Shown here: in pieces, positions 9,001-27,000 of the stretch
Position numbering within the stretch: the first letter of the stretch is position 1
Layout of the letters: every line of letters starts with the position of its first letter
Source: Nitrospirota bacterium
Lineage (GTDB): Bacteria > Nitrospirota > UBA9217
Length of the DNA stretch: 64,000 nucleotides
Direction: 5' to 3'
Assembly (NCBI GenBank): GCA_963737155.1
Contig: CAVTRN010000001.1
Location: forward strand, 128,001-192,000
Position numbers: made by a program

Positions 9001-12000
9001 GCCTGAAGCATGTCCAGGAGATATGCGGCATCCCGTTCATTAGGCCGCATACAGGACCTCCTTTGTCGTGAGGATCGAGTGCCTGCGGAAAGGATTGCTG
9101 ATGGCCTTTTTCTCGACAAGGTCAACTTCTCTTCCAAATATTGCCTTCAGCTCGTCCAGCATGTCCACGCGATTGTCAAACGTAATACTGCCACCCCGCT
9201 CGAACGTCACCAGCACATCCACGTCGCTGTCGGGACGAAAATCTTCCGTGAGTACCGAACCGAACAAAGAAAATTCCTTGATTTTCCATTTGAGGCAGAA
9301 CTCTTCGATTTTTATCATCGGGATTTGAATATTAGTTTTTAACATAAGTGCCTCCCACACTAGATTACGATTTGAGTATACATTGTCAATTTGTGAATTT
9401 CAACACTATTTTACGATTTTGCCACGATGTGCACAGGGCATTAAACCAGAGGGAATCCACACTACGTTACGAATACCCATTTTAGATAAGTCTGTTCAGA
9501 ATGACATCCGGTTGGAGAAAATCAACTTGTATTCGTGGTTATTGAACTTCTTCTGAACTCGTTTGTTTGTAGATGTAGTCGAGTAAAATATAATATTAGC
9601 GAAGGTGCTGAATTCATTTTGTATCATTGTATTTTGTGACATGGTTTTTTGTCAACGACTCCATCCTGAGCTAGTACTCGGCATGAATGGGCCAAGAGTG
9701 TAACCTTCACTCTGATTTGTTGATATGCCAGTAACATACCGCCGCTCCATCTCTCGTTGACATCATCGTAAATCGGGCTCGTATTCGTGAAAACAAATAC
9801 AGATGGCTTAATTTCCGCTCCATTTTACTCCGTAATTTAATGCTAATTTCATACTCTTGTAATATTCATCGAATATACTATCGTATATTTACAGGGAAGC
9901 TGGTAGTAAGGTCAGTCCGATAACAGACAATCTGTTAAGATGGCAGGTATTAATGTACGTCCGTCCTCTAAAGATGTGACTAGTGCAGATGCCATTATAT
10001 AACAAACGGTGCCTTGTTATCAAAAAGTCAGGAGATGATATTTGGTTGTGCCGCGGAGTCAAAAATTGTTTTTCAAAGGGTTAATCGTTGTGAGGACGTG
10101 GATTTATATCGTTTTTATTCTATGCTGCCTGCTATGGAGTCCAGCAATTGCAGAGGAAAAACCACTGGACTGGACTAAACTCTTTGCGCGCGATGTGGTC
10201 ACCGAGGTAATTAAAACTGTAGACGACGTTCCCGGCGTTAAAGCGAGTTTCTGCGTAAAATCTACGCCCGAGCGTATCTGGTCGGTGCTTACGGGCTATA
10301 GCCATTTCCCCAAAATCTACAAAGGCTTAAAAAAAGTGAATGTTCGTATAAGGAGTAACGTTGGAGCCGAGGTGGAATACGTATATTTAGTTAATTTCCT
10401 GGGTATCTTCAACAAAGAACTGGACTATGTAATAAGCGATCAATATGCCCCGTCTCACCGTCGAATAGTGTGGGAACGCGTATCAGGCGACCTGGACCGA
10501 ATTGAAGGAAGCTGGGAGATCATTGATACCCAGAGGGACGGCACCTATCTTCTTGAGTACTGCTCGTACGTCAAACCGCCTTGGTATATCCCTGAAAGTT
10601 TGGTACAGTCAAAGGCAATGAACAAGGTCAAAGAAATGGCTAATGCTGTTCGCACCTGGGCAGAAAGAAGCGGACAGTAAAATCATGCCGGTCTAGGCTC
10701 ATCTCAAACGCTAAAGAGACATAAGTTCTTCCTGTGGCTATGCTTCAACCGGAATCCATTAAAATTTCAATGCATCGAAGCTCCAACAGTTGTAAATGAA
10801 GTCATGCTTCATATATTATTAGCGAAGGTGCAGAACTCATTTTGCATCATTGCATTTCGTGATATGGTTTTCTGTCAATGACTACATCCTATACTCCTCC
10901 TGCCAGAATTAATTGATAAAATCATAAGGCATTCATTTCTTTAGAATTCGGACAATCTATTTTACTGCGCAAACCTCCCCTCTGCATTCATTGCGGATGT
11001 TCTCGCTTTGTTTGACGAAGCTCTCTTACAAGTAACGAAACTTGGCCTCTAAGAGTTATTGCTAATCCGGCGTGCAGTGCCGCCTTGCATCCCTTATCCA
11101 GAATATCAGGTTTCGTGCGGGGCCCTGATCTGCAGCGAGACGAGGTCATAGGCCTCAACCTTCCTGATATGGCTCTCTTCGTCAATGTCTTTCTTTGGGT
11201 TGCCTTTCAAAAATGATCGTGCAGAAAGCCCGCATATGAGATCTTTTGGACCAGCCTATACTTGAGGATCCCCCAGATTGAGATGATCCTGGTCAAAAAT
11301 CTCATCCTTCTTCTTCACCGTCCATACTTTGATCAAAAACTTTGCAGCGAGCTTCACCCCCAGTTTGGTACCAATCCCCTGCTCTTGCCGTCGGCGAAAG
11401 AAATTTCTACAGTAATACATAATGAAATAATAGCTCATGCCGGTAAATTATCGGTAGCCCGACAGGAACCAGGTTCGAATGAAAATAACGTAAAAAATTG
11501 AACTTGGATAAATCTACATGAATCCTCATATAAAACAATCATCTATCGATGAAGTAGAGACGCCCAATCTTTTTTTTCTGCACTACTAAAGTTTTGATGA
11601 GTTTATGCCGACAAGAAGTGTAAGTATGAATAGGTCTAATACAACTATTTGCATTTTATAAGGAGGAAACAAAATATGAAGAAGGTATTTGTGGTTTTGG
11701 CAGGTTCAGTCGGGCTGTTAATGGTTTCATTGTTATTTTACGGATGCGCGGCTAACCAGCAGGAGTATCAAAAAGCATTCGATAGCCAGCATTCGCTTAC
11801 CCAAAATCAGAGTGCGTTCACACAGTCGCCTGACAGTATTTTCAAGATCGCAAAACAAACCTTTATTCAGCAAGGCTTCACTATTGAAAGCGCAGACTTA
11901 AATTCAGGAATAATAAAAGCGGTACGGGACATGCAAGATAAAAAAGATTCTGAGATTTCTTACAATATTCATGTATCAACAGATATTTCAGAAGTGACAG

Positions 12001-24000: not shown

Positions 24001-27000
24001 AACCTTCCCCGCGGAGTACATCCCCTTGGCGAACAGATTTCTTTTATCGCATCTTATCTAATATTCGCACAAGATATTAGTATTGCTCATCGTGCTGGAT
24101 TTTGAGTTTCAACAATAACTGTGTAGGGGAGTTTCAGGTAAAGCAATACTCCAGAAAATCGGCGTATCAAGGACGTGTGGCTGCCGAAACGTCGCATTGA
24201 TGTATATTAACTAAAGTGTGTGGGACTAGAGATCGAGGCGTATTTGCAATAGTGACACTGCTACAACGACCGGGCATTGCGGGTGGCAATAAGAAGTTCC
24301 ATAATTAAAAAGAGGCAATGGTCGGAGCCTAGAAAATACATAAGTAGCCTGATCATGAAGTATACCTTATTACAATTGTGAAACCATGCAGATAATCGAG
24401 TGTGAATCCGGAATTCAGGCTACGATCATGCCGGGTGAATATTATGCCACCGACAGGAACGTGATGATACGTACATTGCTCGGATCGTGCGTGGCAGCCT
24501 GTCTGTTTGATCCGGAGAGCGGAGTCATCGGGATGAATCATTTTCTCCTGAGCAACCGCCGGTATGCCAAGAACCTGCCGGTTTGCCTGAGTGAAGCGGG
24601 GAAATACGGCATCCATGCCATGGAACTGCTTATTAACGAGATGCTGCAAAAAGGTGCGAAGCGGCGAAACTTACGCGCCAAGGCTTTTGGTGGCAGCACG
24701 ATGTACCGGGTGTCGGCGACGCGAGATAATTTTTTCTGTGTCGGCGAAGTCAACGTCCGCTTTATCCGCGAGTTTCTAAAAAACGAGGATATACCGCTGA
24801 TTGCGGAGGACCTTGGCGGTGAGATCACGCGGGTCATCCATTTTATGCCCGAAGATTATTCGGTCCATGTGAGAATAACCCGCAAAGCATCTGCGTCCAC
24901 CATCAACCAGGAAGAATGGCAGTTCTGGAAAAAAGAGCATAAATGCCCAGGAAAGCTCCAAACCGCAAGTCGACCTCTGGGAGTAGTTTTCAACAGGCCT
25001 TTAAAAAAGACTCCATATATCCTGCGTTATTGAATGGCAAGCTCATATGCATTCGGAGAAATGGTTGTTTATTGTAGGCAGTGTGATAATTCTCGTTCCA
25101 TCTCGCATTATAGATAGCAAAACCATAAAATCCTTGACTGGCAGATATTTTTTCGTGATAATGTACTGCTACCCTGCGACTCCCTTACCTGCGATTTAAA
25201 ATCCAAGCCTGGACATTGCAGGCGTGCGAATATGTTACTGAACGTTAGCAGGGTGATCAAGGTTTTACACTACACGTGGTTTGGCAAGACCTGATGCTTA
25301 TGCACGACAGTCTGCAACATTCGACAGTTGCTTGATTACCCAATGCTTTTGCCTGCATGCTATACTCTCGCTTGCTTCTTTCCTGCTCTTGATCCGAGGG
25401 AATATGAAAGTTGCTTGATAAAATAATCAGCATGCCTGAAATGGCGGGTACAAGAGCATGATAAAACTCTGAGAAGCATATGACCTTGCACCAATCTAGG
25501 CGATTTTTCCTGGACCTTGTTCATGAGAAGAGGAATCGGAATTAACATGCCACTCGTGCTCAATACAAACATCGATGCGCTGGTGAATAAGAAAATAAAG
25601 GGGAAAATTGCGCGGATCGGCGGCACCGTAAATCAACTCCTGCAATATGAAGGATGCACTGTGGAAGATATTAATCTTCTAGACGGAGGGTATGGCATCA
25701 TAGCGGAAATACAGAATGCCGGTAATCTTTACCAGATGTACAGATCGATTAAAAAAATTATGAAACAGGAGGTCAGATTTTTTAAGAAAGGGCATCGTAT
25801 GCCGCGAGACAGGAAGACGCTTATTTTAGATCTGCATAAAGCGTATCTGCAAAGCGGTCTTTCAGCCAAATATGACTGCTCCATTTCGAGTAATTTAATT
25901 GAACATTCGCCGAATCCCATTCTTCTCCTATTGAATTTTTATTACATAACGAAAGAGGGCGGATATCAGTATCATGCGATTCCCCATTATAAATATACAT
26001 TCGACATGTACAGAAATCCGACAACTATTGAGCATTTAATCGCGGATTTTGAAAGCATGACGACTGACGCGGATTCATCGCATCGGGAAGACTATAGACA
26101 GTCGGCTGTGGTCAAACACGGATGGCAAAGAGATTTTCACAAAAAATATCCAATGTCCTATCCTTATATGCATTATCATGTCTTTGATGAAGTGAATGTA
26201 AGGCAACTGGCTGACTTCATGTTTGAAGATGTTTGCAATGATATCCTTACGGATGACGAATTTTCCGATAATGTCGTGATCTTTCGTAACACATTAAACG
26301 ATAACTTTTGCAGACGATTTGCAAAACTTATTGACTTTTATCTGGGCAAACAACGAGTCTCGCATGATGCACCAAACGCCTAGATTTACAAAAGACGCGT
26401 TTTAAAGTAACCCTATTCTCATCGACGTCGATAAGCTACCTAGTGCACATGCTCTGGTCCGCACGGATGTAAATATTTTCTCGCATCCATCATTGACCTT
26501 ATTCCACTTAGTGAGCAAAGTGAATAATTCGGCTCAAGGAATCCCGCGGTTTCACTAAAATTGATCCGGCCAAAGTGGAATTTATGACAAGGTTTTCTAT
26601 TAATTTCTCCTTCCTGGTAGCAAACGAGTTTACATTCCTTGCAAGAGTGTGATTTACAACTTGAAATTTTCATAGCTCCCCCCGGAAAGAAGTGACGAGA
26701 ATCACATCCTATAGAAGTTGACTCTGATACACTTCCAATATGAAACGGATGCTAACAGATCAATTCTATGAAGAGACTACATCTACCTCACCGCATGGCG
26801 AAGATATGGTCAGGTGTTCAGAGATCTTCTATTCCTTAATACTCGTACTTCTCGTTTTAGCTCCATCCGCCTGCAAGGGTAGCGGTTCCAACGGGACCAT
26901 GCCAGCCACCGCGACCATGACGGTGCCTGTAATCTCTGCCTTTACTGCCTCTCCCTCGGTCATTGCATCAGGACAGTCCACCCAATTGGCTTGGAACGTG

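Follow-up and report, generated by a model that had tools for sequence, protein, structure and literature searches.

What is the AT-rich sequence that recurs between unrelated genes of a Nitrospirota bacterium, and is it, as a preliminary description proposed, a promoter or boundary module of mobile gene cassettes? The question was examined in a window of 64,000 nucleotides (position 1 is position 128,001 of contig CAVTRN010000001.1) and in the 4.84-Mb genome to which it belongs, here called G000. Over the range of that description (9567-25033) we found five copies, all on the + strand, of a non-coding sequence of about 110 bases, which we call the A repeat. An nhmmer profile built from these copies gave 30 matches at E<1e-3 in G000 (12 on contig C1 and 18 on contig C2), 27 of them at E<1e-9 and 10 of them partial; the earlier count was 31, and the multi-copy element is real. 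A search with one copy as query detected the repeat in 9 of 14 congeneric genomes, while 26 genomes of 24 other genera gave no match. It is limited to one genus of soil Nitrospirota, as its reported presence in congeners and absence elsewhere had implied. The label 'AT-rich' holds only modestly, since the G+C content of the copies is 37-43% and that of the genome 49%.

The A repeat does not stand alone; it is one core type of a wider modular family with the order L-core-X. The left module, L, is conserved, measures about 75 nt, begins 0-100 nt past the stop codon of the preceding gene and ends in ...TGCAAG.TTGTAGGTG. Every L ends at GTAGGTG, and past this point the L-bearing sequences diverge into several types of an exchangeable core of about 85 nt, A among them. 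The conserved right module (X, about 65 nt) always begins with CTTCCTG, regardless of what stands before it. In G000, nhmmer (E<=0.01) counted 53 L modules, 35 right halves of the A core, and 41 X modules; 34 L and 31 X modules occur without an A core. The features of the window are as follows.

Copy 1, 9520-9673, + strand: L-head motif at 9520-9534 (12 of 15 matches to TTTCAACCTGTATTC) and A core at 9558-9673 with TTGTAG-16-TATAAT.
Copy 2, 10743-10896, + strand: L-head motif and A core at 10780-10896, 100 nt past the SRPBCC gene 10042-10680; -10 box altered (2-nt gap against the copy at the equivalent position in the relative G011).
IS110-family remnant, 10884-11393, - strand: 3' end of the transposase gene and non-coding right end; abuts the right end of copy 2.
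Copy 3, 18253-18383, + strand: L module with an A core (18293-18383) that breaks off at model position 92.
3' stump of a metallophosphoesterase-like gene, 18375-18545, + strand: joined directly to the cut copy 3, so that the open reading frame 18231-18569 is a chimera; an LMWPc/ArsC-type gene (18595-19023) comes after it.
Copy 4, 19155-19364, + strand: L at 19155-19227, A core at 19198-19313, X at 19300-19364; the most complete copy in the window.
Second, canonical promoter-like site, 19408-19436, + strand: TTGCAA-17-TATATT, located past copy 4 and ahead of the methyltransferase gene 19706-20287.
Solo left piece without core, 20495-20547, + strand: L-head motif, linker, and TTGTAGGTG; the hybrid kinase gene 20765-23596 lies about 220 nt downstream.
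Copy 5, 23761-23918, + strand: L at 23761-23835, A core at 23805-23918; 209 nt past the PAS/GAF hybrid histidine kinase gene and 468 nt before cheD (24386-25033).
Orphan X module without core, 26610-26675, + strand: begins CTCCTTCCTG, 65 nt ahead of gene 26740-28080; beyond the range of the preliminary description.
Orphan L module, 30148-30216, + strand: a different core type comes after it; likewise beyond that range.

About 185 nt beyond the head of L, its sequence recurs as the tail of X. Among 47 copies from three genomes, a 15-nt L-head motif lies at -31 to -45 in 25 (at -35 in 16 of these) and again, as a direct repeat, at +148 to +156 in 22. A direct repeat of the unit's own head borders it, and since this repeat is identical among the copies, it is not a target-site duplication. 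The edges also carry a short and imperfect inverted repeat, AGGTGAAG ... CTTCCT as read from the copy sequences; matched by eye in A copies, AGG(TG)AAG(TC)GAGTT ... AACTCCTTCCT has 11 matched bases and two 2-nt gaps, and in other core types the shared part is only 6 nt.

None of the 30 A copies overlaps a called gene. According to our gene calls, which are crude and made in-house, 23 of the 30 have the upstream gene and 24 the downstream gene on their own strand. The corresponding values are 26/34 and 22/33 for orphan L modules and 24/30 and 26/31 for orphan X modules. The genes adjoining the copies belong to unrelated Pfam families. Thus, two earlier statements, that downstream genes are co-oriented (21 of 30 at that time) and that they are unrelated, stand, but the element travels with the gene that precedes it. 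In all six pairs of copies that share a flank, the upstream flank is common, no pair shares the downstream flank only, and the alignment ends at model position 100-117. The A repeat is linked to the upstream gene, not to the downstream one, and it lies 3' of this gene in the same direction, as an attC site does.

Only the A core, among the core types, carries the consensus hexamer pair TTGTAG-16 nt-TATAAT. It matches the sigma-70 consensus at 3/6 positions of the -35 box and 6/6 of the -10 box, with a spacer within the usual 16-18 nt. Conservation among the 47 copies spans +5 to +113, shows no three-base rhythm and no conserved frame, and is uneven, with peaks on TATAAT (1.3-1.6 bits, among the best conserved positions) and a few other stretches; about 65 nt past the -10 box are also conserved. 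The A core carries what looks like a standard sigma-70-type promoter, whose activity we infer from its sequence; no sequencing run recorded as RNA contains this stretch, a result that speaks neither for nor against such activity. The next co-oriented gene mostly lies 200-1000 nt away, but in four copies the next gene begins 26-87 nt past the core, which is then the sole upstream DNA. A consensus promoter scan of the region gave 49 sites against 31.1 +/- 5.6 in shuffles, and its 4/6 rule called the A-core site in one of the five window copies (copy 2). The term 'promoter-like' is apt for the hexamer pair, but at least six copies have a better canonical candidate promoter (TTGACA-17-TATAtT) between core and next gene, and core types B to F retain the element's frame but lack the -10 box, so that promoter activity cannot be a property common to the family. 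At two loci conserved in position between species, the identity of the core (77% and 80%) is lower than that of the L module and flank (88-90%), which could indicate weak constraint on the core.

IS110-family elements, with transposase domains PF01548 and PF02371, are located at three fixed points of the repeat. The same insertion sequence splits two G000 copies with different flanks at GAGTTTCA^TATAAT. In G011, a 1.8-kb insertion sequence ends at ...TATGTAGGTGA in four places, just before GTAGGTG; two of these are inside element copies and two adjoin bare GTAGGTGA. The third point is the right end of the core, as at copy 2 of the window. Between independent copies, the insertion point agrees to the base and the orientation is constant, as expected of an IS110 target repeat, and the repeat is a favoured landing site for this one family. 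Targeting of REP sequences by IS110-family elements is reported in two papers (PMC1525189, PMC11208160), and repeat targeting by IS110/IS1111-family elements in two others (10.1101/2025.01.17.633520, 10.64898/2026.03.19.712850).

We favour, with about even confidence, the reading that the A repeat is the A-type member of a genus-specific, non-autonomous modular intergenic repeat family with a promoter-like core, whose copies are IS110 landing sites and exchange sites. The units would work in double-stranded form, with neither an RNA fold nor a DNA hairpin involved. In A-type units, a TATAAT placed 16 nt past the TTG at the end of L would complete a sigma-70-type promoter facing the next gene, and read-out from the core into whatever stands downstream would explain why the surviving copies are co-oriented with their neighbours. 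The copies are old and drifting. Being numerous and alike, they would serve as landing sites for IS110-family insertion sequences, and DNA would be exchanged at them, most clearly at the GTAGGTG and CTTCCTG edges; as landing and exchange sites, they would come to lie among scattered single-gene blocks. How the units spread, and what part they may have in moving genes, we infer from these patterns.

The family could instead be a selfish repeat in decay that has no function today; a MITE-like or minisatellite-like unit would have spread in the ancestor of the genus, with orientation bias and promoter-like box as by-products. We consider this unlikely, with an appreciable chance nevertheless. The A cores of G000 have a mean pairwise identity of 70.6%, and the nearest neighbour of 16 of 19 copies sits in another genome, which argues against a recent burst or homogenisation. 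The many cut copies and orphans, their clustering with insertion sequences and gene stumps, and the short edge inverted repeat are also consistent with selfish decay, whereas the conservation peaks on TATAAT and the strong strand bias, which full copies and orphans have alike, count against it. Nor did we find a target-site duplication, an empty site, or a transposase for the A-repeat family, and comparison with relatives gave no locus with both flanks kept and the element alone missing.

The modules are concentrated at C1 0-300 kb and C2 0-400 kb, gene-poor zones with a called coding density of 0.62-0.75. Around the window copies, 19 kb map piecewise onto many contigs of relatives, in which the gene blocks are non-syntenic, whereas a module-free 19-kb control (C2:1.10 Mb) is collinear in five of five relatives; a second control (C1:1.30 Mb) is partly collinear. 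Block maps of the module-rich zones are a mosaic, with single-gene blocks scattered in relatives. Breakpoints also occur there between genes without an intervening A core, and some 'blocks' are debris, namely the IS110 remnant and the gene stump next to copies 2 and 3. Thus, the proposed boundary module does lie in shuffled zones, but it marks these zones and not every border. The SRPBCC block had been described as bounded by the element on both sides. In G011 there is a positionally equivalent copy on the downstream side, but the upstream side has no more than a weak fragment (model 60-117, 16.5 bits), separated by 170 nt from the block that the two genomes share.

These maps bear on another explanation, in which L, core, and X together would be an attachment site for cassette exchange, recognised by a site-specific or RNA-guided recombinase, with gene-bearing segments, which have promoters of their own, exchanged at the CTTCCTG/GTAGGTG edges, integron-like but without a hairpin attC. 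A 0.78-kb DUF4337 segment lies between two CTTCCTG-type heptamers in G000 (C2:250960-251742) and is missing at the otherwise matching locus of the relative G001, where the same right-hand sequence follows directly on the core. A second CTTCCTG-bounded case was seen at C2:230 kb in comparison with a 96%-identical metagenome contig. Only these two junctions suggest cassette mobility, which had been proposed before; the uniform edges of X and L, the common end point of the six flank-sharing pairs, the attC-like position 3' of genes, and the scattering of single-gene blocks point in the same direction. However, a 7-nt repeat is also left by microhomology-mediated deletion, flank-sharing pairs would align to the core end wherever the crossover fell, and many breakpoints lack an A core. 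The copies are dispersed and form no single array, and no hairpin was seen in the folds described below. No recombinase was found for the cassettes: G000 has 10 PF00589 matches, but the stretch from C1:26 kb to C1:416 kb has none, and those closest to the window copies are at C1:23.9-25.8 kb and C1:416 kb. We give this explanation a small chance, and a slightly smaller one to its fuller form, in which L-core-X units would be the sites of a cassette-exchange system peculiar to the genus that moves single genes with their own promoters, the enzyme being either a further recombinase or the abundant IS110-type RNA-guided recombinases acting in trans.

Folding was analyzed at the level of alignments and single copies. 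RNAalifold gave an energy of 0.0 on both strands for 21 cores and 42 L modules, with no conserved hairpin. For ten copies folded as single-stranded DNA, energies were -3.7 to -11.6 kcal/mol (z -2.1 to +1.5), and nine of the ten did not fold better than their shuffles. Rfam 15 matched no copy in the whole window at gathering score and no copy in five further copy-bearing loci; one copy with its flanks had no match at E<=1. Elsewhere in the window, a cobalamin riboswitch (34361-34545) is the sole Rfam match at gathering score. There is only a slim chance that the copies are small RNA genes or shared 5' leaders, with a transcript of about 65 nt or more from TATAAT that acts in trans or on the downstream gene. 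The conserved stretch past the -10 box and the CU-rich CUCCUUCCUG, which we take to resemble an anti-Shine-Dalgarno sequence, would suit such a transcript, but it has no consensus structure, terminator, or Rfam match, and variable DNA of very different lengths follows it. An integron attC or REP/BIME-type hairpin site, to which the position 3' of genes, the co-orientation, and the IS110-family targeting known for REP (PMC1525189, PMC11208160) would correspond, is very improbable, since there is no inverted-repeat structure, the alignment fold is empty on both strands, and the energies are shuffle-like. Neither alignment nor single-copy folds contained a palindromic unit of 20-40 nt as in REP/BIME.

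BOX elements of Streptococcus pneumoniae and enterobacterial BIMEs are modular intergenic repeats whose modules are palindromic or form stem-loops. The Nitrospirota family resembles them in being non-coding, multi-copy, and intergenic, with modules in varying combinations (L, core types, X); unlike them, it has no fold, is strictly oriented with respect to genes, and has its own head repeat on its flanks. Correia elements of Neisseria (about 100-150 nt, many copies) can give a sigma-70-type promoter to the adjoining gene and have 26-nt terminal inverted repeats and a TA duplication. Size, copy number, and the candidate promoter liken our repeat to these and other promoter-bearing MITEs, whereas its inverted repeat is an imperfect 6-11 nt, and neither a duplication nor an empty site was seen. 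The MIRUs of Mycobacterium lie between co-directional genes, oriented with transcription, as most A copies do with their neighbours; they are, however, 40-100-nt tandem units with small overlapping reading frames, and no conserved frame was seen here. With integron cassettes the family shares a conserved 3' site in one direction, single-gene units that vary among relatives, and DNA between short site-end repeats, but it differs in having no hairpin, no integrase beside an array (PF00589 search), copies on two contigs, and a promoter-like box within the site. As at the REP targets of IS621, ISPpu9, and ISPpu10, independent copies carry IS110-family elements at matching positions and in a single orientation; here the target is non-palindromic and three different points of one element are used. 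Repeated intergenic sequences containing promoters are reported for halovirus HF2 (PMC8707807). They are 29-58 bp repeats of a viral genome with an archaeal promoter type, and no homology is implied.

Dispersed repeats shape the rearrangement of bacterial genomes and the expression of newly placed genes, and to our knowledge almost nothing is known of them in Nitrospirota. The present family departs from textbook repeats in its lack of a fold, its fixed direction relative to genes, and its constant L and X modules around exchangeable cores, and it is a marker of those chromosome regions in which single genes reshuffle between species. As a natural multi-copy target used at three defined positions, it is a useful case for studying how IS110-type RNA-guided recombinases choose their targets. 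If the two CTTCCTG-bounded insertions were the rule, they would indicate a new mode of cassette movement; and if cassette exchange does take place at these sites, the family would parallel integrons in function while resting on different principles, with a double-stranded, hairpin-free site.

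A repeat search of window positions 8000-27000 found a 64-101-nt sequence present four to five times in direct orientation, and the copies could be aligned over approximately 110 nt. A profile built from the five window copies gave 30 matches at E<1e-3 in the source genome (G000; 4.84 Mb in two contigs, 49% G+C), 12 on contig C1 and 18 on contig C2, and ten of the 30 were partial. The matches in the window were as follows.

Profile matches to the element (A core) in the window
9558-9673, + strand, A-core copy 1
10780-10896, + strand, A-core copy 2
18293-18383, + strand, A-core copy 3, cut at model position 92
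19198-19313, + strand, A-core copy 4
23805-23918, + strand, A-core copy 5

With a single copy as the query, 9 of 14 congeneric genomes were matched, two of them with at least approximately 20 scored matches apiece; among 26 genomes representing 24 further genera of the phylum, there was no match. An exact 21-mer of the core was present in six records among 185,579 species genomes, five of these records being titled Nitrospirota or Nitrospirae, and a degenerate 20-mer retrieved 39 metagenome contigs, 16 of which held a true copy. A literature search gave no relevant account of such an intergenic repeat in Nitrospirota, which is no proof of its absence from print.

When 47 copies from three genomes were stacked, the conserved span ran from +5 to +113, with the consensus ...TGCAAG.TTGTAGGTGAAGTCGAGTTTCATATAATATTAGCGAAGGTGCAGAATTCATTTTGTATCATTGCATTTTGTGATAAAGTTTTCTGTCAGCAACTCCTTCCTG. 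It contained a sigma-70-like pair, TTGTAG and TATAAT with a 16-nt spacer, and the TATAAT positions were among the most highly conserved (1.3-1.6 bits). A 15-nt motif, TTTCAACCTGTATTC, was located ~35 nt 5' of the core in 25 of the 47 copies and recurred ~150 nt into the unit in 22, thus forming a direct repeat with ~185 nt spacing; its matrix (~13 bits) is too weak for genome-wide counting.

Profiles of the separate parts matched G000 at E<=0.01 53 times for the left part, 35 times for the right half of the core and 41 times for the right extension; an A core was lacking beside 34 of the left parts and 31 of the right extensions. These orphans are explained by the finding that the left module (L) is shared only up to GTAGGTG, beyond which several distinct core types follow, and that the right module (X) starts with CTTCCTG in every case, irrespective of the preceding sequence. 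The X tail is a shortened copy of the L head. L also contains the half-palindrome TGCAAG.TTGTAG and repeats of the word TTCTG(N)CA. Core type B aligns with A, but CAGAAT replaces TATAAT. The module sequences thus showed that the A element is one core type of a modular family consisting of L, core and X. The preliminary description of a 31-copy promoter-like element was correct in that this is a real multi-copy repeat, with 30 matches in G000; the element is not a stand-alone unit. A B-type unit used as the query matched 6 of the 14 congeners and, weakly, one genome of another genus, and is likewise almost restricted to the genus. In B-type cores (G000 C2:69175, C1:222695, C2:396030, C2:1692007 and others), a short frame reading MDIMIWFFWQQELP... 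was seen by eye, with conservative changes among copies and variable ends, and may encode a small hydrophobic peptide or have arisen by chance; A-type cores lack it.

To place the copies relative to genes, crude gene calls from a codon-usage score were used. Coding densities and neighbour assignments are approximate, as shown by a 695-aa multihaem cytochrome-like ORF (Cytochrome_C7, c3) at L003:5452-7539, minus strand (G000 C1:625452-627539), that the caller overlooked. None of the 30 copies overlapped a gene in these calls. The upstream gene was on the same strand as the element in 23 of 30 cases and the downstream gene in 24, and the orphan L and X modules had a like strand bias. The L module starts 0-100 nt past the upstream stop codon. 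The core lay 39-223 nt from the upstream gene in most co-oriented cases, and its distance to the next gene was variable (26 nt to ~1 kb). The flanking genes are unrelated; PAS-domain hybrid histidine kinases precede 6 of the 30 copies. The A core looks like a promoter directed at the next gene, and its sequence suggests promoter activity. A search of sequencing runs recorded as RNA gave none containing the stretch, a result that is neutral as to transcription. At least six copies had a canonical promoter-like site, TTGACA-17-TATAtT, ~100 nt past the core and 5' of the gene. A promoter scan placed such a site past copy 4:

19408-19436 (window), canonical promoter-like site past copy 4

A replication-linked polarity was rejected, as the element direction does not track GC skew: within one skew arm, the copies are mostly on the minus strand at C2 0-400 kb and on the plus strand at C2 1.5-2.0 Mb. 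The skew itself changes sign near C1:750 kb and C2:1.97 Mb and is continuous across both contig ends, so that C1 and C2 may form one circular chromosome.

Among 49 extended copies, six pairs had more than 120 nt of flank in common. In all six, the upstream flank was shared and the similarity stopped at model position 100-117; no pair had the downstream flank alone in common. Two of the pairs are interspecies positional orthologues, two are old paralogous kinases (72-75% identity) and two have an IS in common. Thus, the element goes with the preceding gene. The main rival explanation is that the family is a purely selfish, decaying repeat.

In the two orthologous pairs, identity was 88-90% in the flank and L module, as compared with 77% and 80% for the core. 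The identities at the SRPBCC locus were 92.2% for the CDS, 88.6% for the L module and 76.7% for the core; at the SCP2 locus, identical columns, counted from invariant columns, amounted to 94/105 in the flank, 62/69 in the L module and 66/82 in the core. These values suggest that the core is either under weak constraint or swapped among copies. The G000 cores had a mean pairwise identity of 70.6%, and 16 of 19 copies had their nearest neighbour in another genome, so that G000 has undergone no recent burst or homogenisation; concerted evolution within this genome was looked for and rejected.

RNAalifold found no consensus structure on either strand for 21 cores or 42 L modules, and ten copies folded as single-stranded DNA gave z-scores of -2.1 to +1.5, with one of the ten below -2. 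These results count against a structured RNA, and an attC or REP-type hairpin was rejected on the same grounds. The only Rfam match in the window was a cobalamin riboswitch away from the copies (34361-34545, + strand; 74 bits vs a gathering score of 31.5), and there was none on copies in the other loci searched, so a known RNA family was likewise rejected. The conservation profile of the 47 copies has no three-base rhythm, and the idea of a coding remnant was discarded; by eye, small frames on both strands were not preserved across copies, and small ORFs in the long spacers had no Pfam match. Comparison by eye with the consensus sequences of sigma-54, IHF and dif-like sites gave no fit. In the X modules (41 loci in G000), the words GTTGC...GCAAC and GTTTC...GAAAC alternate by eye about an 8-nt loop, hinting that a small, somewhat covarying 5-bp hairpin may form, but the pairing is broken in several copies. 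A GC-rich hairpin is located directly 5' of approximately ten L modules (e.g. G000 C1:624632-624720 and C2:83164-83250), preceded by GATTCTAAC and followed 3' by GCGTT, with apparent compensating changes; two loci have a common 300-nt stretch upstream of the L module (75% identity). No Rfam match was obtained here.

Insertion sequences interrupt or adjoin several copies. The same IS110-family element splits two G000 copies with different flanks at one site, and the left half that they lack was found beyond the far end of the IS.

IS110-family sequences in or beside A copies
G000 C1:820092-821790, insertion in an A copy, split at GAGTTTCA^TATAAT
G000 C2:198203-197166, insertion in an A copy, with internal deletion, split at GAGTTTCA^TATAAT
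Window 10884-11393, - strand, 3' remnant of a different IS110-family element, adjoining the right end of copy 2

In the relative G011, four insertions of a 1.8-kb IS110-family element end at ...TATGTAGGTGA; two of them lie within element copies directly 5' of GTAGGTG, and two beside bare GTAGGTGA. The IS110 transposase domain had 14 matches in G000. Published work describes repeated intergenic sequences as IS110-family targets (PMC1525189, PMC11208160, 10.1101/2025.01.17.633520, 10.64898/2026.03.19.712850). The window also contains an ISL3-family IS (7378-8775, - strand, ends to ~9483; DDE_Tnp_ISL3, zinc ribbon, HTH), which is probably active, since two more copies, 100% identical over ~1.48 kb, are present at G000 C2:1625690-1627172 and C1:1562713-1564191.

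The 19 kb that surround the copies in the window matched relatives only as 0.4-2 kb pieces over many contigs, and element-rich stretches of the relatives G001 and G011 and of metagenome contigs were equally mosaic against G000. A module-free 19-kb control at C2:1.10 Mb was collinear in five of five relatives, and a second control region in part. Modules cluster in C1 0-300 kb and C2 0-400 kb; module-rich bins had a coding density of 0.62-0.75 by the crude gene calls and a G+C content below that of most other bins. The claim that the element sits at the borders of shuffled gene cassettes held for the mosaic surroundings, but breakpoints without an intervening A core exist (TrmO/RluA in the window and several junctions in stretch L047), so that the element marks flexible zones, not all borders.

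Debris makes up some of the spacers: at window 18375-18545, the 3' end of a metallophosphoesterase-like gene remains, its 5' part having been replaced by copy 3, as shown by intact versions in G001, G011 and G000 C2:180 kb. The short stretch that separates a flavin reductase gene from a 97-aa ORF (window 17047-17181) has one match each, at 79-85% identity, in G001, G003 and G011, where the neighbours are not syntenic. A second, unrelated repeat of ~120 nt (L011:76-199; G000 C2:210076-210199) occurs many times in relatives at 82-89% identity, with 14 or more scored copies in G002 and several in G011, G014, G009 and G001. An element-rich stretch of G011 contains group II intron domains (L040:16611-16899; RF02001, 147 bits; RF01998, 67 bits).

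No clean presence/absence pair was found at three loci with conserved housekeeping neighbours (Tex, MreB and FAA hydrolase), because similarity to relatives ends at the upstream gene or just past it, with the downstream gene located elsewhere. Contigs from four soil DNA runs matched the 19 kb only over stretches a few hundred bases long, and none linked an element to a changed neighbour. In soil run X1, a single contig (depth 3.8) joins 24176 to 24400, omitting the 223 nt of window 24177-24399 between copy 5 and cheD, possibly a strain-level deletion. The cheD gene together with 160 nt of leader (window 24227-25019) has an 84%-identical paralogue at G000 C2:1949260-1950051.

Two junctions involve CTTCCTG repeats. 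In G001, a core ...CCATCCTG leads directly into TATCATTGGAGTTGCC..., and the matching G000 locus has 0.78 kb of sequence, including a DUF4337 gene, between ...CTTTCCTG and CTTCCTG-TATCATTGGAGTTGCC.... At G000 C2:230 kb, comparison with a 96%-identical metagenome contig showed extra DNA between ...AACTTCCTG and ACATCCTG. Site-specific insertion at a 7-nt core would produce this pattern, and so would deletion between short repeats. No tyrosine recombinase was found near the window copies. An integron-like exchange of cassettes has a low probability.

The best-supported reading is that the element is a modular intergenic repeat, specific to the genus and without a fold, that is carried at the 3' end of genes, with its many copies acting as IS110-type targets and sites of DNA exchange. 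Promoter activity, the mode of spread of the units and any active role in gene movement are inferred.
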